Both the position numbers and the translations under genes were made by a program. From a virus (lineage: Duplodnaviria; Heunggongvirae; Uroviricota; Caudoviricetes), in IMG/VR virus record IMGVR_UViG_2563366958_000011: a DNA stretch of 14,993 bases; one strand, given 5' to 3'. Below, one piece after another: positions 1,369 through 14,993 of this stretch; position 1 is the first letter of the stretch, and each line of letters begins with the position of its first letter. Below the pieces are notes generated by a model, which searched no databases, was not told the DNA's origin, and saw only the letters and a program-made list of their open reading frames with translations.

Positions 1369-1444
1369 GCCGATATAGCTCAGTTGGTAGAGCAGCGCAT
1401 TCGTAATGCGAAGGTCGTAGGTTCGACTCCTATTATCGGCACCA
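1369..1444 (+). tRNA. thrW: tRNA-Thr (anticodon CGU), thrW-type; integration target of the downstream island
   Basis: 76 nt GCCGATATAGCTCAGTTGGTAGAGCAGCGCATTCGTAATGCG...GGTTCGACTCCTATTATCGGCACCA. Acceptor stem GCCGATA/TATCGGC, D-loop AGCTCAGTTGGTAGAGC, anticodon CGT in the loop, T-arm GGTTCGACTCC, encoded CCA. Confidence 0.95.
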
Positions 1445-1461
1445 TTCAAACATCTCCCCAA

Positions 1462-1545
1462 GTCTACTAAAGTCTTTCAAAACCCCTTATAATCCGCGTA
1501 TTAAAGCCCCGTTCGTCTTTTGACGTCTACTAAAGTCCCTCAAAA
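1462..1545 (+). repeat. two 21-bp direct repeats (gtctactaaagtcYYtcaaaa) between tRNA and int; probable integrase arm-type binding sites of attL
   Basis: Copies at 1462-1482 and 1525-1545, 19/21 identical, 63 bp apart. Located between the tRNA 3' end (core-type site) and the int start. Confidence 0.55.
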
Positions 1546-1609
1546 TCTACGGTCAGATGGGGGTACTTATGGGGGTATTTGCTGTTCGGTTTAGTGGAGG
1601 TACCCCCAA

Positions 1610-2824
1610 GTGAAACTCAATGCCCGTCAAATAGACACAGCCAAGCCAAAAGAGAAGGCTTACAAGCTGGCCGATGGTGGCGGTTTGTATCTCTTGGTAA
1701 AACCTAATGGAGGTAAATACTGGCGACTTAAATATCGTGTAGCTGGTAAAGAGAAGCTATTGGCACTAGGTGTTTATCCTGAGGTTACTCTAGCCGATGC
1801 TCGGGCAAAACGTGAAGATGCGAAAAGAGGTATCGCTGGTGGTATCGATCCGATGGAAGCGAAACGAGAGGAAAAGATTGCCCGGGAAACGCAGTTAAAC
1901 AACACCTTCAAAGATATTGCCCTTGAGTGGCACAGCAGCAAATTAAAAAAATGGTCTGCTGGTTATGCTTCAGACATCCTCGAAGCCTTCAACAAAGATG
2001 TGTTCCCTTACATTGGCAAAAAACCCATCGCCGAAATCAAACCACTTGAACTTCTGAATGTGCTGCGTCGCATCGAGGGGCGCGGTGCTACAGAAAAAGC
2101 CAAAAAAGTGAGGCAACGGTGCGGGGAAGTTTTCCGCTATGCAATAGTCACTGGTCGCGCAGAGTATAACCCTGCACCAGACCTTACTAGCGCGATGCAA
2201 GGCCATGAATCTAATCATTACCCTTTCCTTACAGCCAAAGAATTACCTGATTTTTTCAAGGCATTGTCCAGTTACTCAGGAAGCGCATTGGTTGTTATGG
2301 CGGCTCGTCTACTGATTATCACCGGCTTGCGGACTGGCGAACTACGTGGCGCATTATGGGATGAAATTGATTTCAACAAGGCTATCTGGGAGATACCCGC
2401 TTCACGTATGAAAATGCGGCGGCCTCATATTGTGCCATTGTCTGAGCAGGCTCTTTCGCTTATTGGGAAGATTAGAGAAATAACAGGCAATTACCCTCTT
2501 ATGTTTCCCGGGCGCAATGATCCAAGGAAAACAATGAGCGAGGCCAGCATAAACCAAGTGTTTAAGCGCATTGGCTACGCTGGACGTGTAACTGGTCATG
2601 GGTTCCGGCACACTATGAGTACGATTTTGCATGAGCAGGGCTATAACACTGCGTGGATAGAAACGCAGCTCGCTCACGTTGATAAGAACTCAATTCGTGG
2701 CACATACAACCATGCGCAATATCTGGATGGAAGGCGGGAGATGCTTCAATGGTATGCCGACTATATGGATTCTCTCGAGCATGGCGGAAATGTGGTGCAT
2801 ATGGTGTTTGAAAAACACGCATGA
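1610..2824 (+). CDS. int: P4-type tyrosine integrase (site-specific recombinase), 404 aa
   Basis: GTG start at 1610 with GGAGG at 1596-1600. N-terminus KLADGGGLYLLVKPNGGKYWRLKYR...LGVYPEVTLADAR matches the arm-binding domain pattern of P4-family integrases. C-terminal catalytic signature present: R (RTGELR), H-x-x-R (HGFRHT), Y (RGTYNHAQY). Sits directly 3' of a tRNA. Confidence 0.93.
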   Translation: MKLNARQIDTAKPKEKAYKLADGGGLYLLVKPNGGKYWRLKYRVAGKEKLLALGVYPEVTLADARAKREDAKRGIAGGIDPMEAKREEKIARETQLNNTFKDIALEWHSSKLKKWSAGYASDILEAFNKDVFPYIGKKPIAEIKPLELLNVLRRIEGRGATEKAKKVRQRCGEVFRYAIVTGRAEYNPAPDLTSAMQGHESNHYPFLTAKELPDFFKALSSYSGSALVVMAARLLIITGLRTGELRGALWDEIDFNKAIWEIPASRMKMRRPHIVPLSEQALSLIGKIREITGNYPLMFPGRNDPRKTMSEASINQVFKRIGYAGRVTGHGFRHTMSTILHEQGYNTAWIETQLAHVDKNSIRGTYNHAQYLDGRREMLQWYADYMDSLEHGGNVVHMVFEKHA

Positions 2825-2890
2825 AACAACTGGACAAGTATACAGAGGTTTACTAAAGTATAAGGGAGTAGATTGATAAAAACTCACAGA

Positions 2891-3220
2891 GGATTGCTAT
2901 TTAACAGTTAGCCATGGAGAAGGGCAATCGCTCTTTTAACAACGAAGATGGAATCTTCTACGCAGCTGAAAAGCTGGATGCTCTTTAACAGCCTTTGGTG
3001 CTTTTCTGATGCAGGAAAGAATAGGGATACATGCACCTTTACAATGCATGTAATGATTCATCCATGAGGCTGCGGAGCGCTGACAAAGCGCAATTGCTCT
3101 TTAACATTGATGTGGGCGGGATGGTTCGTCCCGCAGTGACCGATAGATTTCTATCGGGAAACATACAATGATTCAAATATGAATCTACGGCGCTGACAAA
3201 GCGCAATTGCTCTCTTGCCT
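2891..3220. repeat. intergenic repeat/palindrome array: five GCTnTTTAACA-like motifs, an imperfect ~111-bp tandem duplication and several perfect palindromes
   Basis: Motifs near 2891-2907, 2922-2943, 2977-2993, 3088-3109 and 3199-3220. Exact 24-mer gcgctgacaaagcgcaattgctct at 3077-3100 and 3188-3211. Palindromes gcggga-N7-tcccgc at 3115-3133, cgataga-ttt-ctatcg region at 3140-3157, gattca-aata-tgaatc at 3170-3185. Confidence 0.6.
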
Positions 3221-3475
3221 GCCCACCATGCCCTGAAAAAGGGCGTTCTTTAAAACTACTGGATGTCACGCCTAATAGCGTGATCCTGCCGAAATGCAGG
3301 GTAGCTCTACCCTTGTGGAGCAAACAAACCAAAACAATCTGACTATCTTTTATAAAAGACCGCAATATGTTTTTCATATTGTGGTCTTTGGCGTATTCGA
3401 CATTTGACGCAAATAAAACTCTCGCCATTCGTTGCAGGAGGGGGTTATTGCGTCATTAGTACAGGATATTAATAA

Positions 3476-3679
3476 ATGGCTAATTACAATTCATTAATTC
3501 GTCTCTCTGAAGTTCAAAGGCGAACTGGTTATAGCAAAGCATGGATTTATCGTCTTATTAGTCAGGGGAGGTTCCCTAAACAGGTAAAAATTGGAAGTCG
3601 GGCAATTGCTTTTGTTGAGTCTGAAATAGATGAATGGATTGAGAAGTGTATATTAGAATCTAGAGACGAGGTGGCCTGA
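3476..3679 (+). CDS. alpA: AlpA-family phage/island transcriptional regulator (excisionase-like HTH), 67 aa
   Basis: Sequence LIRLSEVQRRTGYSKAWIYRLISQGRFPKQVKIGSRAIAFVESEIDEWI matches the AlpA/prophage regulatory protein pattern (HTH then a conserved W/E tail). AGGA about 10 nt upstream of the ATG. Confidence 0.85.
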   Translation: MANYNSLIRLSEVQRRTGYSKAWIYRLISQGRFPKQVKIGSRAIAFVESEIDEWIEKCILESRDEVA

Positions 3680-4110
3680 TGGAAAAGAAAAACCGCCCAT
3701 TACAGGCGGCTAATTCAGATATTCGTGTATCTGATGTTACGCCCCTTACAAAATCCCTTCAAGCACCAAAGCGCACACCGAAAAAGCATCGTGCCAGAGT
3801 CTATATGCTGCGTACTGGTATAGAGGGATGGACAGAAAATGACATTCTTCGCTACTGCCGTCTGTCTTCTGGTCGTAACTATGCAACAGAGTTAGAACGC
3901 CAGCTTGGAATCACTCTGGAGCGTATCGACGAAAAGAATCCTGATGGTATCGGAACACACCTTCGCTACCGTTTCTCCTGCCGTGGTGATGTTCTGAAAG
4001 TGATCACTCATGTTAACCATCTTGCGAACATAAATGATCACAACGGACTTTCTCAGCAGGAAATTGCCGACATTCTGAAACTCTACCCGGACGCGTTTAA
4101 CGCCGCCTAA
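3679..4110 (+). CDS. hypothetical protein, 143 aa, basic N-terminus; translationally coupled to alpA (TGATG overlap)
   Basis: ORF whose start overlaps the alpA stop by 1 nt. No family recognised from sequence alone. Confidence 0.65.
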   Translation: MEKKNRPLQAANSDIRVSDVTPLTKSLQAPKRTPKKHRARVYMLRTGIEGWTENDILRYCRLSSGRNYATELERQLGITLERIDEKNPDGIGTHLRYRFSCRGDVLKVITHVNHLANINDHNGLSQQEIADILKLYPDAFNAA

Positions 4111-4122
4111 CGGAGACTGAAA

Positions 4123-4956
4123 ATGAACATCGAAAAAAGCAGATTAATTTCTGAGGCCGCCCCTCATCTGAACGCCTCTCTGGGCACAATTAACGGTAAT
4201 GAATTTGCCGCAATTGTCCCGGTTATTCCTGGTCATATCGGTGGGCGTGAAACCAATATTGTTAGCGCAAAAGCGTTACACAAAGCGTTGGGCGTGGGAA
4301 AAGACTTCTCTACATGGATCACTGATCGCATCTCTGAATATGACTTCACCATTGGGCACGATTACTCAGTCCATAAAACAATTTCCCCAAATTTGGGGAA
4401 AAGCCCGAATGGCGCGGCTTACAGCAAGATAAAGCACTCTGGCAGACCCGGCAAAGACTATCTGTTAAGTGTCGGAATGGCGAAAGAACTGGCAATGATC
4501 GAACGCAATGATCAGGGTCGCGCTATCCGCCGTTATTTCATCCAGTGCGAGGAAGAATTACAGCGTAGCGTTCCTGAAATCGCCGCCCGCTATCGTCGCC
4601 AGCTAAAAGCCCGTCTCAGTGCCGCAAACAACTTTAAGCCAATGTGCGATGCGCTGAATATGGCCCGTGCCGAGATGGGTAAAACGACGCAGCAACACCA
4701 CTACACAAACGAGAGCAATATGATTTCTCGTATCGTTCTTGGTGGGCTAACTGCTAAGCAGTGGGCGCGGATAAATGGCTATTCTGGCGAACCTCGCGAC
4801 CATATGAACGCAGAACAGCTTGAGCACCTCTCATATCTCGAAAGCACCAATATCACGTTAATTGATATGGGCATGGAATATGAGCAGCGCAAAGGAGAAC
4901 TCACCCGCCTGTCGCAACGCTGGCTCGCCAAGCGTCTGGAGGCGGTCCATGTTTAA
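4123..4956 (+). CDS. phage antirepressor-like protein (AntA/AntB-type N-terminal region), 277 aa
   Basis: GGAG SD 7 nt upstream. Segment SAKALHKALGVGKDFSTWITDRISEYDFTIGHDY and following LSVGMAKELAMIERNDQGRAIRRYFIQCEEEL resemble the AntA/AntB antirepressor N-terminal domain as I remember it. C-terminal 130 aa unassigned. Confidence 0.6.
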   Translation: MNIEKSRLISEAAPHLNASLGTINGNEFAAIVPVIPGHIGGRETNIVSAKALHKALGVGKDFSTWITDRISEYDFTIGHDYSVHKTISPNLGKSPNGAAYSKIKHSGRPGKDYLLSVGMAKELAMIERNDQGRAIRRYFIQCEEELQRSVPEIAARYRRQLKARLSAANNFKPMCDALNMARAEMGKTTQQHHYTNESNMISRIVLGGLTAKQWARINGYSGEPRDHMNAEQLEHLSYLESTNITLIDMGMEYEQRKGELTRLSQRWLAKRLEAVHV

Positions 4957-5131
4957 GCCGACAGGAACACCACAACCTCAAAAACGCTACAAAGATGCCC
5001 ACGGAGCACTCGTTACTGTCGAAAGCGTGTCTCACAACCGAGTGACGTTTTATCGCGACGGGTATCAATCGCCATGCGTACAACCGCTGGCGCGCTTCAT
5101 GAAGGAGTTCGCGGAGGTTAACAAATGCTAA
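4949..5131 (+). CDS. small hypothetical protein, 60 aa
   Basis: ATG at 4949 with GGAGG at 4938-4942. Start overlaps the upstream stop (ATGTTTAA). Its stop overlaps the next start. Confidence 0.5.
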   Translation: MFKPTGTPQPQKRYKDAHGALVTVESVSHNRVTFYRDGYQSPCVQPLARFMKEFAEVNKC

Positions 5132-5598
5132 CCGTCCAGAAGAAGATATTTTCACTGGCTGGTATGTCACCAAAATCCAGCAATATGACAGCAAAGTCTG
5201 GCATTAATACAGCAGATACAAGCAAAGTTTATCATTTTCTGGTGGTAGGAGCGGATGCCTTAACTATGTCAGAAATTACGGTCGATGGTGTTAGCGTTGA
5301 GAAGGTCAGCGGCTGCGCCAGAGAATTTCTGGTCGTAGATGGCTTTCTCTGCTCGCGTAGTGACTCCACAAAAACCTTCGTCCATACGCGCGACGTTAAC
5401 GAAATGAGCGCGATGTATTGTGCATCTGGTGCTTCCAATACTGAGTTTTCGGAGTCCATAAAAAAGAGCTTGCCGTTATGCGGCAACACGGTTTATGGTT
5501 ATAAGGCACCTCATAAAACGGGTGCCGGGATTGGCGTCCTGAAAATTCTGAAGGCGACATATGACGCGCCGGGTGATGCTGCCAACTTACTGATTTAG
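5125..5598 (+). CDS. hypothetical protein; last 8 codons and stop are supplied by the IS1 left end, so the native 3' end is interrupted
   Basis: ATG 5125 with GGAGG at 5113-5117, coupled to the upstream gene (ATGCTAA). Frame enters IS1 at 5572 and terminates at the IS1 TAG (5596-5598). Native C-terminus unknown. Confidence 0.5.
5563..5571. repeat. IS1 target-site duplication, left copy (GACGCGCCG)
   Basis: The identical 9-mer recurs immediately after the IS1 right end at 6340-6348. Confidence 0.9.
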
Positions 5599-5626
5599 TG
5601 TATGATGGTGTTTTTGAGGTGCTCCA

Positions 5627-5902
5627 GTGGCTTCTGTTTCTATCAGCTGTCCCTCCTGTTCAGCTACTGACGGGGTGGTGCGTAACGGCAAAAGCACCGC
5701 CGGACATCAGCGCTATCTCTGCTCTCACTGCCGTAAAACATGGCAACTGCAGTTCACTTACACCGCTTCTCAACCCGGTACGCACCAGAAAATCATTGAT
5801 ATGGCCATGAATGGCGTTGGATGCCGGGCAACAGCCCGCATTATGGGCGTTGGCCTCAACACGATTTTACGTCACTTAAAAAACTCAGGCCGCAGTCGGT
5901 AA
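5627..5902 (+). CDS. insA: IS1 InsA (zinc-finger transposition regulator), 91 aa
   Basis: [22 protein letters not shown]...CSHC zinc-finger N-terminus; canonical InsA. Confidence 0.95.
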
Positions 5903-6324
5903 CCTCGCGCATACAGCCGGGCAGTGACGTCATCGTCTGCGCGGAAATGGACGAACAGTGGGGCTATGTCGGGGCTAAATCGCGCCAGCGCTGGCTGTTT
6001 TACGCGTATGACAGGCTCCGGAAGACGGTTGTTGCGCACGTATTCGGTGAACGCACTATGGCGACGCTGGGGCGTCTTATGAGCCTGCTGTCACCCTTTG
6101 ACGTGGTGATATGGATGACGGATGGCTGGCCGCTGTATGAATCCCGCCTGAAGGGAAAGCTGCACGTAATCAGCAAGCGATATACGCAGCGAATTGAGCG
6201 GCATAACCTGAATCTGAGGCAGCACCTGGCACGGCTGGGACGGAAGTCGCTGTCGTTCTCAAAATCGGTGGAGCTGCATGACAAAGTCATCGGGCATTAT
6301 CTGAACATAAAACACTATCAATAA
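5821..6324 (+). CDS. insB: IS1 InsB frame (transposase made as an InsAB' fusion by -1 frameshift at the A6C site)
   Basis: ORF in the -1 frame relative to insA, overlapping its 3' end. AAAAAAC slippery motif at 5878-5884. Coordinates are from the first in-frame ATG of the ORF track. Confidence 0.9.
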
Positions 6325-6339
6325 GTTGGAGTCATTACC

Positions 6340-6348
6340 GACGCGCCG
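6340..6348. repeat. IS1 target-site duplication, right copy (GACGCGCCG)
   Basis: Exact 9-bp match to 5563-5571, directly abutting the IS1 right terminus. Confidence 0.9.
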
Positions 6349-6361
6349 AGCGTCTTTTTTT
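6340..6361 (+). terminator. putative intrinsic terminator (GACGC-GCCGA-GCGTC hairpin plus T7), into whose stem IS1 inserted
   Basis: 5-bp stem, 5-nt loop, then TTTTTTT at 6355-6361. The TSD equals the 5' arm and loop of the hairpin. The stem is short, so confidence is modest. Confidence 0.4.
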
Positions 6362-6369
6362 ATGTCGTA

Positions 6370-6408
6370 GGTCTGACTCACCCATTTTTTGGGCGTTGGT
6401 GTATAATC
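6370..6408 (+). promoter_or_regulatory. putative promoter of the small-gene/primase operon (consensus -10 TATAAT at 6402-6407)
   Basis: Perfect TATAAT hexamer about 160 nt upstream of the first SD-preceded gene. No convincing -35 identified. Confidence 0.35.
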
Positions 6409-6563
6409 CAGCGCCTTTGTCAATCAATGGTGGCTCAGGCGGGGGCTTCTTCGGAAGCGCCGGTATCCTTCAGAGCCGGTTACGCCAACCCTGTCTGGGC
6501 TACCACCAGCGAAATTGGCGTTTCCGGTGGTAGCGTAACCTGCTATCTGAAGGAGGCTGCCAC
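6409..6563 (+). promoter_or_regulatory. structured 5' leader (possible regulatory RNA) upstream of the first small gene
   Basis: Hairpin gcttc-UUCG-gaagc at 6445-6458 and a 9-bp stem gctaccacc/ggtggtagc at 6499-6507 and 6526-6534 with an 18-nt loop. Ends at the AGGAGG SD (6551-6556). Confidence 0.3.
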
Positions 6564-6758
6564 ATGCTGGCTACTACCCCTACCCAAAAACCGCAATTTA
6601 TCTGGATTATCGCCGCAGTTCGCCGCGATTGCCCGACAATTACCGCCAAAATTCATCATATTGCTGCCGAGTCTGAACGCGATGCTCGCCGTTCTCTGGT
6701 GCGCGATCACGTCTGCTTTTTTGCTGGTCGTATCCGCATGGAGGTGGCACATGATTAA
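6564..6758 (+). CDS. small hypothetical protein, 64 aa (first gene of coupled operon)
   Basis: AGGAGG 7 nt upstream of ATG 6564. Stop overlaps the next start (ATGATTAA). Confidence 0.65.
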   Translation: MLATTPTQKPQFIWIIAAVRRDCPTITAKIHHIAAESERDARRSLVRDHVCFFAGRIRMEVAHD

Positions 6759-6969
6759 AACCTACGATGTGCATATGGATCCCCTCGAACGCACAAGCCA
6801 GATCATCACACTGACAGAAGTGATTAACGACATTCTGGTGAGCAACTCTCCCTCACGAGACGAAAGGCTGAAGGCGTTACTCGCGATATTGGATCTCGCC
6901 GTTCGTGACGTTCATTTCCTGCTGGAAGGTGGCGAAATGCCAGGAAAAACGGGGGCAACCAATGAATAA
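6751..6969 (+). CDS. small hypothetical protein, 72 aa
   Basis: GGAGG at 6740-6744, 6 nt before ATG 6751. This is the C-terminal part of track ORF 6427-6969; the short start is preferred because of the SD and the start/stop overlap. Confidence 0.65.
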   Translation: MIKTYDVHMDPLERTSQIITLTEVINDILVSNSPSRDERLKALLAILDLAVRDVHFLLEGGEMPGKTGATNE

Positions 6970-7156
6970 CTCAATTAATACCCCTCGCCTTACGTCCGCA
7001 CTTCAATTAATCGAGCAAGCAGCGGCTGTCCTGGTTGCTGTCAGTCTTTCGGCTGAAGAAATGGACGCTGCTGATGTCGTGGATGCGATTAAAGCGTGCT
7101 CATCTTTGGTTAACGATGCCCGTGCCGAGCTGGTAATTCTTGGGGGTGAAAAATGA
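6962..7156 (+). CDS. small hypothetical protein, 64 aa
   Basis: ATG 6962 overlaps the upstream stop (ATGAATAA). An internal start of track ORF 6905-7156 was chosen to avoid a 60-nt overlap with the upstream gene. Confidence 0.6.
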   Translation: MNNSINTPRLTSALQLIEQAAAVLVAVSLSAEEMDAADVVDAIKACSSLVNDARAELVILGGEK

Positions 7157-7416
7157 ATATCAACTTAATTTATCGTCATCCGTGTGAGCTGGAAATTGAA
7201 TCATTGCTGGGGCGTGAAGAGCCATATCCAGACTCATTCACTCCCGCAGATTGCGCGACTGAACGGCTTACCAGAGCGCGCACAGGTCTGGTTCATGTGA
7301 TGAATGAGATTGTTCCCTCGGTGGGAGGGGAACAGGCGACAGTAATCAATAGCTGGCTACAAAAAGTTACCTCCCTGATAGATATCGGTTTAATCGATGT
7401 GGAGAGTGCGAAATGA
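7153..7416 (+). CDS. hypothetical protein, 87 aa
   Basis: ATGA start/stop overlap with the upstream gene. Uninterrupted ORF. Confidence 0.65.
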   Translation: MNINLIYRHPCELEIESLLGREEPYPDSFTPADCATERLTRARTGLVHVMNEIVPSVGGEQATVINSWLQKVTSLIDIGLIDVESAK

Positions 7417-7634
7417 CCAACATCCAGCTCATTGAAGCGCAATGTCGCATCGAACAGGTTCAGACTGTTTTAGGGTTCTGGCTTGAAGGGGCCAGCCCCA
7501 GCAACAGAGACAAGTTAATGATTGGCGCGGTTATGTCACTGCTCAATGGCGTACCAGAAGCTATTCAGGAAGCGGACGAATTGTTGGGCAAATATGAGTT
7601 ACAGAATCATTCAGGCGAGGCGAAACATGAATAA
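7413..7634 (+). CDS. hypothetical protein, 73 aa
   Basis: ATGA overlap with the upstream gene. Uninterrupted ORF. Confidence 0.65.
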   Translation: MTNIQLIEAQCRIEQVQTVLGFWLEGASPSNRDKLMIGAVMSLLNGVPEAIQEADELLGKYELQNHSGEAKHE

Positions 7635-8229
7635 TTTCTTAACTTTCCATGCAGAAGCAACGCCTGACGGCGTAAACATCATGTACCGCAGCAACGATGG
7701 CATGACAGAACGCGTTGAGGCCGTCTCATATATTGATGCCGTAAATCGTCTGGATGCCGGGGATTATGACGATAAACCAGATGAAGGTATGTCAATACAT
7801 CTCGCTATTGCCGATGGCGGCAACCAGGGATATTTCGATTACACATCACAGCATAACGTCATTATGTGGAGATGGCTGATCGCAACAGTATTCATGCTGG
7901 AAATGAGAGAGGAAAACGGCACTGTCAGCATCATTGATGATACTGGCAATCCTTCCGAAGTGGCTGTTTATTCCAACGGCATCGTCGCCATGCCGCTGTA
8001 TCCAGTAGCAGAGCGCCTCGCTATGGCAAACAACATTGAGGGCGCGATGATAGAACGTTTTGGCATCGAGTCTGGCACAGAACGCGCCATCATTTTCTAC
8101 AGAGCCATGATGGATGTGGAACAAGGAGCACTGACTCCATTTGGTCGTGAAACGCTTGCTGAACTTCACAACAGCTTTATAGCTGAACTGAATGAAAACG
8201 GCATGCCAGCGGAACCAGTGACGCACTGA
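7627..8229 (+). CDS. hypothetical protein, 200 aa
   Basis: ATG 7627 overlaps the upstream stop (ATGAATAA). The longer track ORF from 7522 would overlap the previous gene by 112 nt, so the coupled start is preferred. Confidence 0.6.
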   Translation: MNNFLTFHAEATPDGVNIMYRSNDGMTERVEAVSYIDAVNRLDAGDYDDKPDEGMSIHLAIADGGNQGYFDYTSQHNVIMWRWLIATVFMLEMREENGTVSIIDDTGNPSEVAVYSNGIVAMPLYPVAERLAMANNIEGAMIERFGIESGTERAIIFYRAMMDVEQGALTPFGRETLAELHNSFIAELNENGMPAEPVTH

Positions 8230-8239
8230 GGATGGAGCC

Positions 8240-8581
8240 ATGATTACTAAAAATTTCCGACTGAATGCGCTGGCAAATAAGTATGCGTCGGCACTGTATA
8301 ACCACATTACCTCCACCAGCGGCGGGGACTATTTCATGGTTGATGCGGACGGCGAGGCCGTACGTGTGGAAATCGTCAATGGAGTAAAAGGCGTTCGCAG
8401 CCTGATCGATAGCTACACACTGGCAGCCATGAAAGTGTTCTACCCGCAGTGGGAAACCGTGGGGATCGAGCTTCTTGAGCGTTGCGTCACTAAGGACGGA
8501 TTGACTGACGTCGGGCGTGAGATATGGCAAAGCATGGTTAATGACATGGGCGCAACTGTAGCGGGAGGTTCTCATGCGTGA
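8240..8581 (+). CDS. hypothetical protein, 113 aa
   Basis: GAGG at 8228-8231, 8 nt before ATG 8240. Stop overlaps the next start. Confidence 0.65.
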   Translation: MITKNFRLNALANKYASALYNHITSTSGGDYFMVDADGEAVRVEIVNGVKGVRSLIDSYTLAAMKVFYPQWETVGIELLERCVTKDGLTDVGREIWQSMVNDMGATVAGGSHA

Positions 8582-8945
8582 AAATGCAGAAATGGCGCTT
8601 AGCTCCGCAATCGGAGAGCAGGTGGCAAAGATTGCTGGTGCTGTGTGGATTCATAACCTTCATTCTACTGGTGAAGAGAAAATGGCAATTCAGACGCCAG
8701 AGGGACGCACCATTACTACATCTCTGAAGCCGTCAGATGTTTGTGATCTGATTTGCGCATTCATGTACCCAGCAATGAGGACTGTCCACGGCGATAAGTG
8801 GAAACTTGCGACAACCGCTGAATTTGATATGTGGCTAAACAATGATGGCATGCTGACTGATTACGGAATAACCAAGTGGCAGATGCTGGTTAGCCATATC
8901 GCAAACGCTATAGACCACGTGGGGTACGGTGATGCGAAACATTGA
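8574..8945 (+). CDS. hypothetical protein, 123 aa
   Basis: ATGCGTGA overlap with the upstream gene. 3' end overlaps the primase start by 14-17 nt. Confidence 0.65.
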   Translation: MRENAEMALSSAIGEQVAKIAGAVWIHNLHSTGEEKMAIQTPEGRTITTSLKPSDVCDLICAFMYPAMRTVHGDKWKLATTAEFDMWLNNDGMLTDYGITKWQMLVSHIANAIDHVGYGDAKH

Positions 8946-11688
8946 TCTTATCCGTCAGGTTATCAGTGCGTCTGAAAACAACTGGCCTCATGTGCTGGGC
9001 TGCCTGAACATAAATGTCCCTGACTCTCCGCGCCGTCATGCTCCCTGCCCTGCATGTGGGGGCAAAGATCGATTCCGGTTCGATGACAACGGGCGCGGTA
9101 GCTTCATCTGTAATCAGTGCGGCGCTGGTGATGGGCTGGATTTAATTAAACGCGTAAATAACTGCGACACAACAGAGGCGGCGCTTCTTGCCGCTGATGT
9201 TCTGGGTATTGATTACCGGACAACGGAAACACCAGAAGCCACCAGCCAGAAACGGGAACAACTGGAAACCGAGCGCCAGCGACGCGAACAGGAGCGCCTG
9301 AAAAGGGCAGAGAAGGACGAACAACAAAGACGGGATACGTTTTCCCGTCAGTTTGATGACATGCGCAGAAAGGCTGTAAACGGCAAATCTGATTATCTGG
9401 TTGCGAAAGGGGTAGGTGATTTTACATTCCCCGTGTTGCCCGATGGATCTCTGTTGCTGGCGCTGGTGGATAAATCCGGCGCAGTCACAGCAGCACAGAC
9501 TATTACATCACATGGTGAAAAAAGACTCCTGACAGGTTCAGCAAAGCGGGGGGCATATCACGCCATAAACGCGCCAGAAACAACACAGAGCATCTTAATC
9601 GCAGAAGGGCTGGCAACGGCATTATCTGCCCATTTAATTCGTCCAGAGGCGCTGACAGTGGCGGCGATTGATGCCGGGAACCTGTTATATGTCCCCCAGG
9701 TACTGCGGGATAAATTTCCTTCAGCACAAATCATCATTGCTGCGGATAACGACCACAGCGAAGGAAGACAAAACACGGGGAGAATAGCAGCAGAAAAAGC
9801 AGCTTTATCTGTTTCTGGATGGGTGGCATTACCCCCGACAGATCACAAAGCAGACTGGAATGATTACCACCAAAAACACGGCATTAAATGCGCCACAGAA
9901 GCGTTCAATAAGTCAATGTACCAACCACAGGGTAATGGCGTGAAACATGAGCCACAGACCATTGAGGGAAGCGATTTTAAGGTTATGGATACCGACCCAC
10001 TGAAACCAAGAATAGAAAGCCGCGAGGATGGTATTTATTGGGTATCTCCGAGAGCTGACAGCCAGAGTGGAGAAATCATCAATAACGAAAGCTGGTTATG
10101 TTCTCCGTTAAGCGTTATCGGTACTGGCAGAGACGATAAAGACCAGTATCTCATTCTTCGCTGGCTGTCGTTTGGTTCTGAAACGCCGACAACCGCTGCC
10201 ATTCCACTGGCTGATATTGGTGAACGTGAAGGATGGCGCACACTTAAAGCTGGTGGGGTAAATGTCACGACCAAAAGCAGCCTCAGAGCAATACTGGCAG
10301 ACTGGCTACAACGCAGTGGCTCTCGTGAATTGTGGCGTGTTGCTCATGCCACTGGCTGGCAATGCGGAGCGTACATCATGCCTGATGGGGAAATCATCGG
10401 AACACCTGAAAATCCTGTGCTGTTCAGCGGGAGAAGCTCAGCCGCAGCCGGATATACCGTCTCAGGGAGCGCGAAAAGCTGGCGTGATAACGTGGCGCGT
10501 CTGGCCTTTGGTAACTATTCAATGATGACCGGGATCGGCGCAGCACTGGCAGCGCCATTGATTGGGCTGGTGGGCGCTGACGGGTTCGGCATTCATTTCT
10601 ATGAGCAGTCGAGCGCAGGTAAGACCACCACGGCAAACGTGGCGAGCAGCTTATACGGCAACCCTGATTTACTGCGGCTGACGTGGTACGGAACCGCGCT
10701 GGGGCTGGCAAATGAGGCCGCCGCCCACAATGACGGACTAATGCCGCTTGATGAAGTTGGTCAGGGCGCTGATCCTGTCAGCGTTTCACAGTCTGCCTAT
10801 GCGTTATTTAACGGTGTAGGGAAACTGCAAGGCGCTAAAGATGGTGGAAACCGGGATCTAAAACGCTGGCGTACAGTGGCAATCAGCACCGGAGAAATGG
10901 ATTTAGAAACATTTATCGCTACTTCCGGGCGAAAAACCAAAGCCGGGCAACTGGTGCGACTGCTGAATATTCCGTTGAGTAAAGCAGTACGCTTTCACGA
11001 TTACCAGAACGGAAAACAGCACGCAGACGCACTGAAAGACGCTTACCAGCATCACCACGGCGCGTCCGGGCGTGAGTGGATTAAATGGCTGGCAGACCAC
11101 CAGCAACAGGCTATTAAAACCGTTCGTGACTGCGAAAGCAGATGGAGAAGCCTGATCCCATCCGATTATGGTGAGCAGGTTCACCGTGTAGCCGCGCGAT
11201 TTGCCATTCTGGAGGCCGCATTGTTGTTAGGCGAGGTTGTAACAGGCTGGGATGCTCAGACATGCCGTGATGCGATACAGCACAGCTATAACGCATGGTT
11301 GCGCGAGTTCGGCACAGGTAACAAAGAGCATCAGCAGATTATTGAACAAACGGAGGCATTTCTTAATGCCTATGGGCTTAGCCGTTTTGCACCATTTCCA
11401 TACAGCCCGGCAGATTTGCCCATCAAAGATTTAGCCGGATACCGTCAGCGTGGAGAACATGACGAAAGCCCAATGATTTTCTACACATTCCCGGCCACAT
11501 TTGAAAAGGAGATCGCATGTGGTTTCAACGCAAAACAGTTTGCTGAAGTGTTGAAAAAAGCCGGGATGCTAACCCCACCAAACAGCGGTCGTGGATACCA
11601 AAGAAAATCACCACGTATTCAGGGACGACAAATAAACGTTTATGTACTCAATTACCAGCCAGGAGATTATAACTCATCTGAAGAATGA
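8929..11688 (+). CDS. DNA primase-helicase (P4 alpha-like): zinc-ribbon + TOPRIM primase + Walker-type NTPase, 919 aa
   Basis: N-terminal CPACGG...RFRFDD...CNQCG zinc ribbon. TOPRIM-like motifs ILIAEG and IIAADNDHSEG. C-terminal Walker A-like QSSAGKTT and Walker B-like MPLDEVGQ. Track start is GTG 8929; ATG 8932 is the likelier start. Confidence 0.9.
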   Translation: MMRNIDLIRQVISASENNWPHVLGCLNINVPDSPRRHAPCPACGGKDRFRFDDNGRGSFICNQCGAGDGLDLIKRVNNCDTTEAALLAADVLGIDYRTTETPEATSQKREQLETERQRREQERLKRAEKDEQQRRDTFSRQFDDMRRKAVNGKSDYLVAKGVGDFTFPVLPDGSLLLALVDKSGAVTAAQTITSHGEKRLLTGSAKRGAYHAINAPETTQSILIAEGLATALSAHLIRPEALTVAAIDAGNLLYVPQVLRDKFPSAQIIIAADNDHSEGRQNTGRIAAEKAALSVSGWVALPPTDHKADWNDYHQKHGIKCATEAFNKSMYQPQGNGVKHEPQTIEGSDFKVMDTDPLKPRIESREDGIYWVSPRADSQSGEIINNESWLCSPLSVIGTGRDDKDQYLILRWLSFGSETPTTAAIPLADIGEREGWRTLKAGGVNVTTKSSLRAILADWLQRSGSRELWRVAHATGWQCGAYIMPDGEIIGTPENPVLFSGRSSAAAGYTVSGSAKSWRDNVARLAFGNYSMMTGIGAALAAPLIGLVGADGFGIHFYEQSSAGKTTTANVASSLYGNPDLLRLTWYGTALGLANEAAAHNDGLMPLDEVGQGADPVSVSQSAYALFNGVGKLQGAKDGGNRDLKRWRTVAISTGEMDLETFIATSGRKTKAGQLVRLLNIPLSKAVRFHDYQNGKQHADALKDAYQHHHGASGREWIKWLADHQQQAIKTVRDCESRWRSLIPSDYGEQVHRVAARFAILEAALLLGEVVTGWDAQTCRDAIQHSYNAWLREFGTGNKEHQQIIEQTEAFLNAYGLSRFAPFPYSPADLPIKDLAGYRQRGEHDESPMIFYTFPATFEKEIACGFNAKQFAEVLKKAGMLTPPNSGRGYQRKSPRIQGRQINVYVLNYQPGDYNSSEE

Positions 11689-11711
11689 GCTTCTTCATGT
11701 GCGTAGAAAAG

Positions 11712-11826
11712 GTGTTGGTTCAGTTGGTTCAGTTGGTTCAATTTGTAAAGAGTATTGTTTTATAAGGATTTTATTCTTTTTATTGAACCAACACTGAACC
11801 AACAACACGGTATTTTGAACCAACAC
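11712..11826. repeat. iteron cluster, putative replication origin: three tandem GTTGGTTCA and three inverted TGAACCAAC(AC) copies flanking a 43-bp AT-rich spacer
   Basis: Direct 9-mers at 11714-11722, 11723-11731, 11732-11740. Inverted copies at 11784-11792, 11795-11803, 11816-11824. AT-rich spacer 11741-11783. Immediately 3' of the primase-helicase gene. Confidence 0.6.
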
Positions 11827-12144
11827 AATGTGACTGAATTGATGCGCACAACACCTGGCTGGCATCAGAGAGTGTTTTACGAGACTTTCGTAAAATCCTG
11901 TGTACAAGGGCGTGACGTTTTTGAAAGTGAGCACTACGAAATTTTCGTAGTTCAGAAAACAGCCTCTGAGAAGTTGTTATGCCTGTTCAGCAAACCATCC
12001 GCATAGCTGATCGCGAATCAAATTACCAATGGAGCCAGAAGCAAGGGCAGAACTGAAAAGCGCCTGCCGTGAAGAGTAATGCGACACCATAAATATAGTT
12101 TTTAGAGTCCATAAAAAACCTGTCAAAACCTGACACACAGAACG

Positions 12145-12178
12145 ATGCCACCAGCTACTGAGCGGTGGCATTTTTTTT
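12145..12178 (+). terminator. rho-independent terminator (7-bp GC-rich stem, extended by 3 inner pairs, followed by T8)
   Basis: tgccacc (12146-12152) pairs with ggtggca (12164-12170); inner pairs 12154-12156 with 12161-12163. TTTTTTTT at 12171-12178. Confidence 0.7.
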
Positions 12179-12197
12179 GTGCTATTTGTTTCATATT

Positions 12198-12246
12198 TTG
12201 CAATTACGATGATGAATATTGCGATTTGTGAAACTATAATAACTGT
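12198..12246 (+). promoter_or_regulatory. putative promoter/operator of the small RHH-like gene (-10 TATAAT at 12235-12240; inverted repeat GCAAT-N13-ATTGC at 12200-12222)
   Basis: Consensus -10 hexamer about 35 nt upstream of the ATG. The adjacent inverted repeat could be an operator. Confidence 0.35.
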
Positions 12247-12273
12247 TGTTTTATACAGTTCTAAGGGGGCGTT

Positions 12274-12435
12274 ATGGCTATTTCAGTAAAGCCGGTATTG
12301 ATAAGTGAGAAGCAAATGGAAGCGATAAAGAAAATTCAGGAAGAGCAGCGTAAAAAATCAGGAATTGGAGTAGCGCCAACTCTGCATGAAATTGCACGAG
12401 GGTTAATAGATAAGGCGCTGGCAGGCTGTATGTGA
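12274..12435 (+). CDS. small protein, 53 aa, predicted ribbon-helix-helix-like DNA-binding fold (below the ORF-track size cutoff)
   Basis: AAGGGGG SD at 12263-12269, ATG 12274, stop 12433-12435. MAISVKPVLISEKQMEAIKKIQEEQ...APTLHEIARGLIDKAL shows a strand-helix-helix pattern; the fold assignment is inferred. Confidence 0.55.
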   Translation: MAISVKPVLISEKQMEAIKKIQEEQRKKSGIGVAPTLHEIARGLIDKALAGCM

Positions 12436-12451
12436 AAATGGATGGCATCGC

Positions 12452-12808
12452 ATGGAACTAAAATTTATTGATAACCCTGTGCGATTACAGGCCTTTCTTA
12501 ACGAGCCAGGCAATACCGAAAATATTGTTGAGCCGGGGCACACGTACTACATCAAGCCTGATGCGGTATATCTCGGCATCTACGAAGGATTAGTGCTGGC
12601 TGGCGTTCATGAAGTGCGTAACTTCTGGCATAGCGTTGTTGAATGCCATGCGGTGTACGACCCCGGATTCCGTGGTGAATATGCACTGCAAGGACATCGA
12701 TTATTCTGCAAATGGCTTCTCGAAAACTCACCATTCCTTAACAGCATTACCATGGTTCCTGACACCACGAAATACGGACGGGCAATTATCCGTTTGCTTG
12801 GCGGGTGA
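12452..12808 (+). CDS. hypothetical protein, 3' end truncated by IS1 copy 2 (stop codon lies inside the IS1 left end)
   Basis: ORF begins 17 nt after the RHH-like gene. TGA at 12806-12808 belongs to the IS1 terminus GGTGATG, so the native C-terminus is missing. Confidence 0.55.
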   Translation: MELKFIDNPVRLQAFLNEPGNTENIVEPGHTYYIKPDAVYLGIYEGLVLAGVHEVRNFWHSVVECHAVYDPGFRGEYALQGHRLFCKWLLENSPFLNSITMVPDTTKYGRAIIRLLGG

Positions 12809-12858
12809 TGCTGCCAACTTACTGATTTAGTGTATGATGGTGTTTTTGAGGTGCTCCA

Positions 12859-13134
12859 GTGGCTTCTGTTTCTATCAGCTGTCCCTCCTGTTCAGCTACT
12901 GACGGGGTGGTGCGTAACGGCAAAAGCACCGCCGGACATCAGCGCTATCTCTGCTCTCACTGCCGTAAAACATGGCAACTGCAGTTCACTTACACCGCTT
13001 CTCAACCCGGTACGCACCAGAAAATCATTGATATGGCCATGAATGGCGTTGGATGCCGGGCAACAGCCCGCATTATGGGCGTTGGCCTCAACACGATTTT
13101 ACGTCACTTAAAAAACTCAGGCCGCAGTCGGTAA
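12859..13134 (+). CDS. insA: IS1 InsA, copy 2
   Basis: Translation identical to copy 1 InsA. Confidence 0.95.
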
Positions 13135-13556
13135 CCTCGCGCATACAGCCGGGCAGTGACGTCATCGTCTGCGCGGAAATGGACGAACAGTGGGGCTATG
13201 TCGGGGCTAAATCGCGCCAGCGCTGGCTGTTTTACGCGTATGACAGGCTCCGGAAGACGGTTGTTGCGCACGTATTCGGTGAACGCACTATGGCGACGCT
13301 GGGGCGTCTTATGAGCCTGCTGTCACCCTTTGACGTGGTGATATGGATGACGGATGGCTGGCCGCTGTATGAATCCCGCCTGAAGGGAAAGCTGCACGTA
13401 ATCAGCAAGCGATATACGCAGCGAATTGAGCGGCATAACCTGAATCTGAGGCAGCACCTGGCACGGCTGGGACGGAAGTCGCTGTCGTTCTCAAAATCGG
13501 TGGAGCTGCATGACAAAGTCATCGGGCATTATCTGAACATAAAACACTATCAATAA
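13053..13556 (+). CDS. insB: IS1 InsB frame, copy 2
   Basis: Translation identical to copy 1 InsB. Confidence 0.9.
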
Positions 13557-13566
13557 GTTGGAGTCA

Positions 13567-14316
13567 TTACCCAAATGCCGCAGCCCCCTCTGGATCCGCC
13601 TTTAACATTTGCGCGTATTGATTGTAATTCTGCATTGCGGCTGTTGGTGCATATGCTGACGTTAACGCATTTGCTCGGCTAATATCCTGCCCTCTCGCCT
13701 GAAGTGCTTCTCCGGCTTGATTGCTGCGGATCGTCTCTGCCAACTTGCCACGCTCAATATCCCGACCTTCCATTCGATCTTTGATATCGAAGTACTTCTC
13801 ATGACCGAGAGAAAACAGTGCCATACTACCAGCAAGCCGCTGGAATCCCTGTGGATCATTAACATGCATTTCGGCAACAGACTCAGGAGAAATTCCCAAA
13901 CGACGCATTTCATCTTCGTTATCTGCTATGAATTTTCCAAATGCCCCAGTTCCGAGCGAAGATGCGATTTGAGCACTAGTCGCAAGATGACCAATAGAAT
14001 TTCTCTGGTCGTCATCAATAAAGCCCATCCCTTTCTGAACGCTTTCAAATTCTTCTGGATACTCAGAAATAAGACTGCGCATTTTGTTTCTGTCTCCAGA
14101 CTCAAAAGCCCCGGCATATGCTTTCTGAAACTCTGCTTTACGCTGTTGTTGACGTGCCTGCTGATTAATCTCAGCAACGCCTCTTAGCCCCTGTAGCGCC
14201 ATTAAACCTACGTTTGGCTGCTGCTGATACTGCACAGGCTGAGGAACGGAAGAACGAGGAGCATTATCATTTTGCGGTGCCATGCTAGGCAGCCCGCCAA
14301 GTTGCCATGTCGCCAT
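13567..14316 (-). CDS. hypothetical Gln/Pro-rich protein, 249 aa; stop codon supplied by the IS1 right terminus, so probably C-terminally truncated
   Basis: Minus-strand ORF whose TAA (13567-13569) lies inside the IS1 end sequence. Start overlaps the upstream gene by 1 nt (TAATG), indicating an operon. Confidence 0.6.
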   Translation of the reverse strand: MATWQLGGLPSMAPQNDNAPRSSVPQPVQYQQQPNVGLMALQGLRGVAEINQQARQQQRKAEFQKAYAGAFESGDRNKMRSLISEYPEEFESVQKGMGFIDDDQRNSIGHLATSAQIASSLGTGAFGKFIADNEDEMRRLGISPESVAEMHVNDPQGFQRLAGSMALFSLGHEKYFDIKDRMEGRDIERGKLAETIRSNQAGEALQARGQDISRANALTSAYAPTAAMQNYNQYAQMLKADPEGAAAFG

Positions 14317-14993
14317 TAGAATCCAAGCCCCCCAACAAGACCAATAAGCCCACCACCAATAGCCCCGGCGACATTACCTATACCCGGAACAACGGAACCA
14401 AGTTGCGCACCCGCTAAAGCGCCTGATGCCGCCCCACCAATACCACGCGCAAGACTGGATGGCTGCTGCGCCTGACCTGCACGAATAGCGCCAAGCCCCT
14501 GCAAGAGTTGTCCGGTATTATTGGCGTAGTTTTGCCCTGCTGTTGCCTGCCCTGATGCCGCATTCATCCCGACATTTAGCAGGTTTCCATAATTTTGCAT
14601 TTGCCCACTGAGCCAATTGTTATAAAGCATGGGCGCAATGGAAGATAACTGGTTACTGGTAGCTGTTGAGCCAAGCCCCCCGGTAGCTTCTGCTGAGACA
14701 AGGTTCTGATAACGGGCCTGATCTGCCTGTGTTTTATATAAACCAGAACCAAAGAAATCATTCGCGGCTTTATTCTGCCCTTCCAGAGTCATCAGTCCTT
14801 GTAGTTGTTGTAAAGCAGGCAATCCGACTTCTGCATACGGCTTGAGATTATTCATCACCGTATTCCACTGCTCGCGCTGCAAATCAATTGCCTGCTGCTG
14901 GGCCTTCGCCTGAGCTTTAGAGGCACCACCATCACCGCCTTTTTCGTATACGGCACGATTGAGATGTTTATAAGCTATATGGGTAATTAACAT
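14316..14993 (-). CDS. hypothetical Gln/Asn/Gly-rich protein with a C-terminal glycine-zipper hydrophobic segment; N-terminus may lie beyond the window edge
   Basis: Minus-strand ORF reaching the window end. C-terminus GIGGAASGALAGAQLGSVVPGIGNVAGAIGGGLIGLVGGLGF looks like a membrane-inserting glycine zipper. Possibly a phage ejection or structural protein, or a bacteriocin-like protein; family not recognised. Confidence 0.55.
   Translation of the reverse strand: MLITHIAYKHLNRAVYEKGGDGGASKAQAKAQQQAIDLQREQWNTVMNNLKPYAEVGLPALQQLQGLMTLEGQNKAANDFFGSGLYKTQADQARYQNLVSAEATGGLGSTATSNQLSSIAPMLYNNWLSGQMQNYGNLLNVGMNAASGQATAGQNYANNTGQLLQGLGAIRAGQAQQPSSLARGIGGAASGALAGAQLGSVVPGIGNVAGAIGGGLIGLVGGLGF

Follow-up and report, generated by a model that had tools for sequence, protein, structure and literature searches.

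A probable EcCIMP1-type phage satellite at thrW, damaged by IS1, with an antisense RNA immunity module and P22-type ejection-protein genes

What kind of element has integrated behind the tRNA-Thr gene thrW in viral record IMGVR_UViG_2563366958_000011, and what state is it in? We analyzed a stretch of 14,993 nucleotides (nt) from this record, here called the window. A first-pass annotation, made from the letters alone, had taken it for a phage satellite at thrW that IS1 has partly degraded, akin to P4 or to the phage-inducible chromosomal islands (PICIs) of Gram-negative bacteria. That view was borne out by ~98% identity to EcCIMP1, a proven PICI of Escherichia coli MP1 (97.7-98.4% over the shared parts, with the same gene order). 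Identity to a second copy, in SCU-172, was 99.8-99.96%. From these sequence comparisons we conclude that the window very probably holds an EcCIMP1-type Gram-negative PICI, a satellite of P22-like podoviruses, which sits at thrW and has been degraded by IS1. Elements of this kind have already been described, and the window copy is a damaged example of them.

EcCIMP1 is a 19,963-bp island in tRNA-Thr between proA and yagU, with the core sequence TCCTATTATC and Sanger-sequenced junctions (PMC11773190). Without the P22-like phage Kapi1 it does not circularize; helper induction turns on its alpA promoter, and both its excision and its transduction by Kapi1 require int and alpA, while a chromosomal marker is not transferred (PMC11773190). 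The window copy has the same thrW site, the same att core, and the same order of genes from int to the ejection-protein cassette as the published element (Pick, Stadel and Raivio, ISME J 2025; helper vB_EcoP_Kapi1), and the two are nearly identical in int, alpA, antA, ash, and the primase gene. It differs from EcCIMP1 in having two IS1 copies, an inverted and truncated cassette, another C4 loop and target, and an extra 247 bp upstream of alpA. Its gp20 gene is of the SCU-172 type and not of the MP1 type, and its right arm lies outside the window. The primase gene of the element is present at a coverage of at least 80% in 361 of 5,426 complete E. coli genomes (~7%).

Everything 3′ of thrW in the window is foreign DNA, and ~13.6 kb of the island is contained there. 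Features are collected in Table 1; those of the element lie on the plus strand unless marked otherwise, and labels such as L001 (the SCU-172 copy) denote islands fetched as relatives. The order from thrW onward is an integration zone (int and alpA), a Bro-type zone, an RNA immunity module, six small genes, a primase-helicase with an iteron origin, and a late zone. A tRNA, a P4-type integrase, and an AlpA regulator in one orientation had been recognized at the outset, and ARAGORN and Pfam agreed. Several features of the window are traits of Gram-negative PICIs: an int gene adjacent to the att site, alpA in the same orientation as the operon, Bro genes together with an immunity RNA, and a primase-helicase of the Pri-Rep type with an iteron origin. 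AlpA is the master activator in these islands. By comparison with the map of Kapi1, int of a P22-like prophage would be transcribed towards attL, whereas int in the window is transcribed away from thrW. None of the other marks of such a prophage (coat, portal, terminase, tailspike, or lambdoid regulators) is present in the window.

The att core TCCTATTATC lies at positions 1428-1437, inside the 3′ end of thrW, and forms attL; it is identical to the core reported for EcCIMP1. When up to 3 mismatches were allowed, the thrW 3′ end did not turn up again anywhere in the window, so attR is not within it, as had been noted before. In Ec-050 (L002) and YJ6 (L003), attR (TCCTATTATCG-CACCATT, repeating the thrW 3′ end) lies at the far end of the island, adjoining the yagP/paoD side. 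The distance from thrW to attR is 17.6-20 kb in intact relatives. The whole unit measures 17.6-19 kb in L002 and L003 and includes ejection-protein genes, a PerC-family gene, and a pRiA4b-ORF3-family gene. A right arm with alpA_1, perC, and attR was seen in these two islands and in L081. Two 21-nt direct repeats, GTCTACTAAAGTC..TCAAAA (repeat family D11), occupy 1462-1482 and 1525-1545 of the window, and a tandem ATGGGGGTA motif lies beside int at 1557-1578. The sequence ATGGGGGTACTTTTGGGGGTAT, ~80 bp inside attR of L002 and L003, matches ATGGGGGTACTTATGGGGGTAT in this last interval, with the motif ATGGGGGTACTT(A/T)TGGGGGTAT in common. The attL-arm repeats and the tandem motif are probable arm-type sites for Int or AlpA.

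The island had been said to carry no virion genes. This is correct for capsid, terminase, tail, and lysis genes, none of which was found in the window, and incorrect for ejection-protein genes of the P22 type. Homologues of gp14, gp7, gp20, and gp16 are the only members of the virion gene set, both in the window and in three intact relatives, L002, L003, and L081. The island has no capsid, portal, protease, or terminase gene of its own in the window or in the E. coli relatives, and contiguous capsid, terminase, or tail genes do not precede attR in the intact ones. Nor does the island end at position 12803, as had been proposed. This position is only the junction with the second IS1 copy, and gp14, gp20, and gp7 homologues flank it and continue the island. 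These corrections, with one to the number of small genes given below, alter the anatomy of the element and leave its class unaltered.

The gp14 homologue in the window is 89% identical to Kapi1_055. The gp20 homologue maps to the opposite strand of L001 (21541->20797), and the gp7 homologue, whose start codon is the end of the window, is 100% identical to the SCU-172 copy. In the SCU-172 island, the order is gp14-gp7-gp20, and these genes share a strand with the primase gene. This cassette is homologous to genes 14, 7, 20, and 16 of P22-like phages (Lederbergvirus) and keeps their order, while the rest of the virion module is absent from the island. In P22, gp7, gp20, and gp16 are the virion proteins that form the DNA conduit. 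Compared with the helper Kapi1, the cassette of E. coli islands is 83-89% identical for gp14, 57% for gp7, and 26-35% for gp20; gp16 is 24% identical or gives no match. Of the complete E. coli genomes, 257 retain the junction from origin to gp14. At the head of the late zone stands an open reading frame (ORF) for 53 amino acids (aa), which is conserved at 52-100% identity in many relatives. In Escherichia, as in the Leclercia island L033, the P22-type cassette follows it immediately.

The two IS1 copies in the window are identical and 768 bp long, and with the inverted and cut cassette they confirm that IS1 has degraded the island. The first copy is a simple insertion and occurs at this place in no complete E. 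coli genome of the collection (5,426). It sits in the terminator of an isrK-like element, so that the transcription unit of alpA and the upstream target copy now lie on one side of it and the C4 RNA with the replication operon on the other. The second is the breakpoint of an inversion: positions 13572-14993 map in reverse onto the SCU-172 copy, so the stretch that reaches from within gp14 to within gp20 has been inverted at IS1. We predict a partner IS1 in the opposite orientation, together with the missing 3′ end of gp14, just beyond the end of the window. The first IS1 copy is expected to disconnect alpA from the replication operon, and the second has disrupted the late zone, so the window copy is probably no longer inducible or transferable.

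What had been called a leader is real and proved to be more specific, comprising an isrK-like element, a C4 antisense RNA, and an Icd-like ORF, with the first IS1 copy inside. The isrK-like element consists of a copy of a seqA-type target, TCTGAAGG (5547-5554), and an intrinsic terminator, GACGCGCCGAGCGTC-T7, found by a terminator scan. On the uninterrupted SCU-172 copy, the Rfam isrK model scored 67.8 bits against a cut-off of 50. The C4 RNA, of the P4 CI type, exposes the specificity loop UAUCCUUCAGAG at 6464-6475, a 12-nt loop on the second hairpin. Its structure is conserved in 20 distinct homologues, with 99.6% of cells paired and 13 pairs changed on both sides; when the partner was slid by one to three columns as a control, pairing was 32-52%. 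A model built from homologues matched 31 copies, including that of EcCIMP1, and none in Kapi1.

The loop is hypervariable, with 14 types in 25 loci, and loop and target co-vary. Every loop type has a perfect complement of 8-10 nt located 29-34 nt downstream of the aligned RNA segment, where it overlaps the Shine-Dalgarno sequence of an icd-type gene, and in most of these loci the complement occurs a second time, ~94 nt upstream. In the window, the target TCTGAAGGA (6546-6554) overlaps the Shine-Dalgarno sequence of the Icd-like ORF. The loop of the window copy, UAUCCUUCAGAG, differs from that of MP1, UUUCCUUGUACG, as does the target. Since the loop types differ, the two alleles should not cross-repress, and the window and EcCIMP1 are probably hetero-immune, judged by their pairing sequences.

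The CI RNA of P4 with seqA and seqC, and the c4-icd(-ant) system of P1, follow the same antisense logic. Like P4 and the immI region of P1/P7, the island has a processed antisense RNA with targets up- and downstream, the downstream target covers an icd-type ribosome-binding site, and the module stands ahead of a replication operon that ends in the primase. Unlike P4, the island has no sid, psu, or delta, has another helicase domain, and has a podovirus helper; unlike both P4 and P1 immI, its Icd-like ORF is in another frame than the Ash/eta-like ORF. C4 and isrK matches in Bro zones of Gram-negative PICIs were reported earlier (PMC10111431), and the EcCIMP1 paper makes no mention of C4 or isrK (PMC11773190). 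The RNA immunity module goes beyond the published description of EcCIMP1.

The RNA elements are overlapped by an ORF of the Ash family, which the first IS1 copy divides into 5125-5571 and 6349-6969. In SCU-172 the corresponding 355-aa "ash family protein" (L001 13125-14192) covers the isrK-like element, the terminator, a conserved hairpin, the C4 RNA, and the targets, and also the Icd-like ORF, which is read in another frame. Residues 124-232, the Pfam Phage_ASH domain, coincide exactly with the RNA elements. Part of the Phage_ASH family signal may come from conserved RNA. We considered that the ORF is purely a mis-annotation over RNA and softened this view, P4 eta being a precedent for a real ORF that contains CI RNA and seqA.

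Several points weigh against reading the window island as an EcCIMP1-type satellite. No TerS-, Ppi-, or Rpp-like gene that would account for packaging was seen. attR and the right arm, with perC and its neighbors, lie outside the window, so the completeness of the island is not visible in it. Transduction of EcCIMP1 is very inefficient (PMC11773190). The C4 promoter was not located: a TATAAT at 6402-6407 was not accepted as a firm assignment, being in the loop of a compensatorily conserved hairpin and missing in several relatives.

Could the cassette and the island have separate histories? A P22-like prophage at thrW might have decayed to gp14-gp7-gp20-gp16, with an unrelated int-alpA-primase island integrating in front of it later. 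P22-like phages do carry exactly this block beside the tail needle gene, the region in MP1 was first scored as an incomplete prophage (PMC11773190), and other E. coli genomes have, at different places, copies of the 3′ part of gp14 with 97-98% identity. However, EcCIMP1 excises as a single circle of 19,963 bp with the cassette included (PMC11773190), which largely refutes such an accretion. The cassette is also flanked by genes of the island family (the 53-aa ORF; perC, the gene for the pRiA4b-ORF3 protein, and a 119-aa ORF) that are found without a cassette in other genera, and the arms of attR and attL share a motif, on the attL side next to int. The same 53-aa ORF and gp14-gp7-gp20 order recur in a Leclercia island with another integrase (27% identity) and a 68%-identical primase. 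We regard two separate histories as highly improbable.

The resemblance to P4 raises a different possibility, that of a satellite of the P4 family in the strict sense, with a P2-like myovirus as helper, capsid remodeling by Sid and Psu, and activation by Delta. The P4-type integrase and the AlpA/Vis-like regulator would fit, as would the N-terminal part of the primase, where residues 7-361 are 32.6% identical to P4 alpha. CI/C4-type RNA immunity inside an Ash/eta-like ORF before the replication operon is likewise as in P4. Against this, Pfam and PHROGs gave no match to Sid, Psu, Delta, or Epsilon in any ORF from alpA to the primase or beyond it. The helicase part of the primase is a DUF927 domain, for which P4 alpha offers no alignment, and the ejection genes of the late zone are of podovirus type. 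EcCIMP1, at 98% identity, has a P22-like phage as its proven helper. A P4 satellite in this sense has scarcely any chance of being correct, and we think just as little of an element of plasmid-like or integrative mobilizable nature that replicates as an episome and spreads mainly without phage particles, by conjugative or other transfer. What speaks for the latter is a close relative recorded as a closed circular plasmid of 12,152 bp, the frequency of DUF927 primase relatives on plasmids (mostly at <60% identity), and the fact that no packaging gene was identified. The island has, however, no relaxase, coupling protein, or other transfer gene, and this absence of conjugation genes also speaks against the affinity to plasmids or integrative and conjugative elements that the first-pass annotation had named as a possible refutation. 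Transfer of EcCIMP1 required the helper phage and did not extend to the chromosomal marker. The circular record was typed as non-mobilizable, and an excised satellite would look alike.

That record, L083 (NZ_CP148430.1), is an E. coli "plasmid" that consists of an EcCIMP1-like island with another integrase and without the ejection cassette. CP031370.2 (L084) is listed beside it, and similar small circular records exist for Klebsiella. Such records may be excised or episomal satellites.

Table 1. Features of the window, with the delivery-gene stretches of relatives below
Feature	Coordinates	Strand	Basis or remark
proA	first 1,254 bases of window		5′ of thrW
thrW, tRNA-Thr(CGU)	1369-1444	+	ARAGORN, Rfam tRNA
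attL arm	1462-1578	+	two 21-nt direct repeats and tandem motif
P4-type tyrosine integrase (int), 404 aa	1610-2824	+	Pfam Arm-DNA-bind_3, Phage_int_M, Phage_integrase
int-alpA spacer stretch absent from EcCIMP1, 247 bp	2998-3244	.	comparison with EcCIMP1
alpA	3476-3679	+	Pfam Phage_AlpA, E 7e-20
Bro-type zone	3679-5131	+	Pfam, PHROGs; zone scheme of PMC10111431
143-aa ORF	3679-4110	+	no Pfam, NCBIfam, or PHROGs function
AntA/AntB antirepressor-family protein	4123-4956	+	Pfam, PHROGs
DUF4222 protein	4949-5131	+	Pfam, PHROGs
Ash-family (P4 eta-like) ORF, 355 aa in intact relatives	5125-6969	+	Pfam Phage_ASH on intact L003 copy
isrK-like element	5506-6361	+	split by first IS1 copy into 5506-5571 and 6349-6361
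IS1, first copy	5572-6339	+	simple insertion; 9-bp target duplication GACGCGCCG at 5563-5571 and 6340-6348
C4 / P4-CI-type antisense immunity RNA	6423-6510	+	Rfam RF01695, 79.9 bits against cut-off 45, E 1e-14, full length
C4 target sites	GGTGGTAGC 6526-6534; GCGTAACC 6533-6540; TCTGAAGGA 6546-6554	+	complementarity
Icd-like ORF, 64 aa	6564-6758	+	NCBIfam phage_ICD_like, E 4e-20
Six small genes	6962-7156, 7153-7416, 7413-7634, 7627-8229, 8240-8581, 8574-8945	+	starts and stops overlap or nearly abut
Primase-helicase (Pri-Rep), 918 aa	8932-11688	+	Pfam Zn_Ribbon_Prim, Toprim_3, DUF927
Replication origin	11714-11824	.	GTTGGTTCA iterons, 3 direct (11714-11740) and 3 inverted (11784-11824)
53-aa ORF, head of late zone	12274-12435	+	conserved; no family match
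P22 gp14 homologue, first 117 of 153 codons, cut by second IS1 copy	12452-12803	+	Pfam DUF2824, E 2e-45
IS1, second copy	12804-13571	+	identical to first copy; no target duplication; breakpoint of inversion
P22 gp20 homologue (ejection protein), first 248 codons	13572-14316	-	Pfam Inj_translocase, E 4e-59; inverted relative to island
P22 gp7 homologue (ejection protein), complete, 225 aa	14316-14993	-	Pfam P22_gp7, E 2e-72; inverted
Delivery-gene stretch, L007	9984-12983
Delivery-gene stretch, L024	15568-18141
Delivery-gene stretch, L028	14684-17260
Delivery-gene stretch, L029	14486-17641
Delivery-gene stretch, L033	15752-20902
Delivery-gene stretch, L034	15130-19407
Delivery-gene stretch, L040	14189-21648
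Delivery-gene stretch, L053	17220-20786

The replication genes agree with an EcCIMP1-type PICI. The zinc-ribbon, TOPRIM, and Walker-type primase-helicase and the iteron origin that had been read from the letters are supported by the Pfam domains, by a P-loop-like SSAGKTT motif visible in the translation, and by the 3 + 3 arrangement of the iterons. The cysteines of the zinc ribbon are in CPAC and CNQC, and the protein has a weak match to the Cch helicase of SCCmec. The GTTGGTTCA iterons give six matches against 0.1 expected by chance, and the spacer between the two sets is 84% A+T. Origins of E. coli PICIs are reported to be organized in this way, with an AT-rich region between iteron sets (PMC6092414). 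Other E. coli strains have genes that share 93% identity with the first ~838 nt of the primase gene (8932-9770, the zinc-ribbon and TOPRIM part) and then continue into a DUF5906 helicase domain and not into DUF927, which suggests that satellite primases have shuffled their domains.

Intact islands have a second full 3 + 3 cluster of GTTGGTTCA around a spacer, inverted and just upstream of perC, so an origin-like cluster stands at either side of the variable late zone, the two in inverted orientation. The pairs lie at 21925-22035 and 29487-29607 in L003, at 19276-19396 and 10736-10856 in L081, at 17964-18074 and 24094-24215 in L002, and at 6540-6650 and 8436-8556 in L083. The window shows the first cluster only, and SCU-172 has lost the second.

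Between leader and primase, eight overlapping small genes had been counted; there are six, plus the Icd-like ORF. The six small proteins gave no Pfam, NCBIfam, or PADLOC match and matched only PHROGs 1515, 37628, and 20558, all without a function. The genes after alpA had been called cargo. They are present, as the usual Bro-type zone (the 143-aa ORF, the AntA/AntB protein, the DUF4222 protein, and the Ash-family ORF). Defense cargo was considered and set aside, with a single weak and partial PADLOC match of the AntA protein to a candidate family; the authors of the EcCIMP1 study likewise found no known defense system (PMC11773190). The 247-bp stretch between int and alpA contains two perfect 24-nt direct repeats, GCGCTGACAAAGCGCAATTGCTCT (3077-3100 and 3190-3213), 113 nt apart, and GCTCTTTAACA recurs nearby. 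It lies within the counterpart of the helper-responsive alpA promoter fragment of EcCIMP1, -449 to +50 (PMC11773190). A 129-aa minus-strand ORF annotated there has no family match.

The same layout of int, alpA, Bro zone, primase and origin, and late zone is known from Gram-negative PICIs of the EcCICFT073 type (Fillol-Salom et al. 2018; four-zone scheme of PMC10111431). These islands also have iterons around an AT-rich spacer, a helper-induced AlpA activator, and, in some Bro zones, C4 and isrK RNAs. EcCICFT073 uses lambdoid cos helpers and Rpp, whereas no equivalent of Rpp, Ppi, or TerS was seen in the window island. Similarity between EcCIMP1 and EcCICFT073 is confined to AlpA, PerC, the primase, and some hypothetical proteins (PMC11773190).

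By analogy with EcCIMP1, P4, and P1, the cycle of an intact island of this type would run as follows. In the integrated state, the C4 RNA would pair with the two target copies and shut off the operon from the icd-like ORF to the primase. A lytic P22-like helper would turn on alpA, and AlpA-driven transcription from upstream would override the RNA block, as in P4. Int would then excise the island at TCCTATTATC, the primase-helicase would fire the origin, and the DNA would be packaged into helper particles. An RNA immunity switch with many specificity types could explain the silence of such islands without a protein repressor.

How widely do such islands carry genes for DNA delivery? We fetched primase relatives from 77 loci in Enterobacterales and beyond and surveyed the 66 species-level enterobacterial ones downstream of the primase. 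About a third (~18-22 of 66) have DNA-delivery genes after the primase without a capsid or terminase module (Table 1). P22-type ejection proteins occur at this place in Escherichia, Leclercia, and Pectobacterium (3-4 loci), with a fused gp20- and gp16-like protein of 1,425 aa in Pectobacterium. Three loci have T7/SP6-like internal virion proteins, three or four per locus, and 3 more have partial sets. A tape-measure protein follows the primase in 12 loci, among them the Pantoea or Erwinia islands L024 and L029, and is the sole recognizable virion gene in the two that were checked (L029 and L007). Full capsid modules are found in five or six other, more distant primase relatives, which are capsid forming. 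A literature search for satellites that carry ejection or tape-measure proteins found no description, within a limited coverage that does not prove newness. Recurrent helper-type DNA-injection proteins after the primase are apparently an undescribed pattern, which goes beyond the published account of EcCIMP1. Two things merit follow-up, this late-zone pattern and the variety among the RNA immunity types.

What might the cassette do? Foreign sets of ejection proteins assemble into P22 virions and function as matched gp16/gp20 pairs. Changes in gp16 and gp20 escape exclusion by SieA, and changes in the tape measure escape exclusion of the Ltp type. It is a tentative idea, and one that we hold to be rather unlikely, that the cassette is a working adaptation across the satellite family, a matched DNA-delivery set of the satellite's own for its particles and not junk or a "packaging module." The set would be gp7/gp20/gp16 of the P22 type in the window island and T7/SP6-like internal virion proteins or a tape-measure protein in relatives. 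Besides the published behavior of ejection proteins, the recurrence of delivery genes in ~18-22 of 66 relatives, the distance of the cassette proteins from those of Kapi1, and the gp14 junction retained in 257 genomes speak in its favor. By analogy, the benefit could be injection into cells whose helper-type prophages block entry by exclusion of the SieA, Ltp, or HK97 gp15 type. EcCIMP1 also contributes, in a way that is unexplained, to superinfection immunity, and the cassette could alternatively account for this. If the delivery proteins are used, satellites would tune the entry of their particles, which would bear on host range, on superinfection exclusion, and on PICIs as delivery vehicles.

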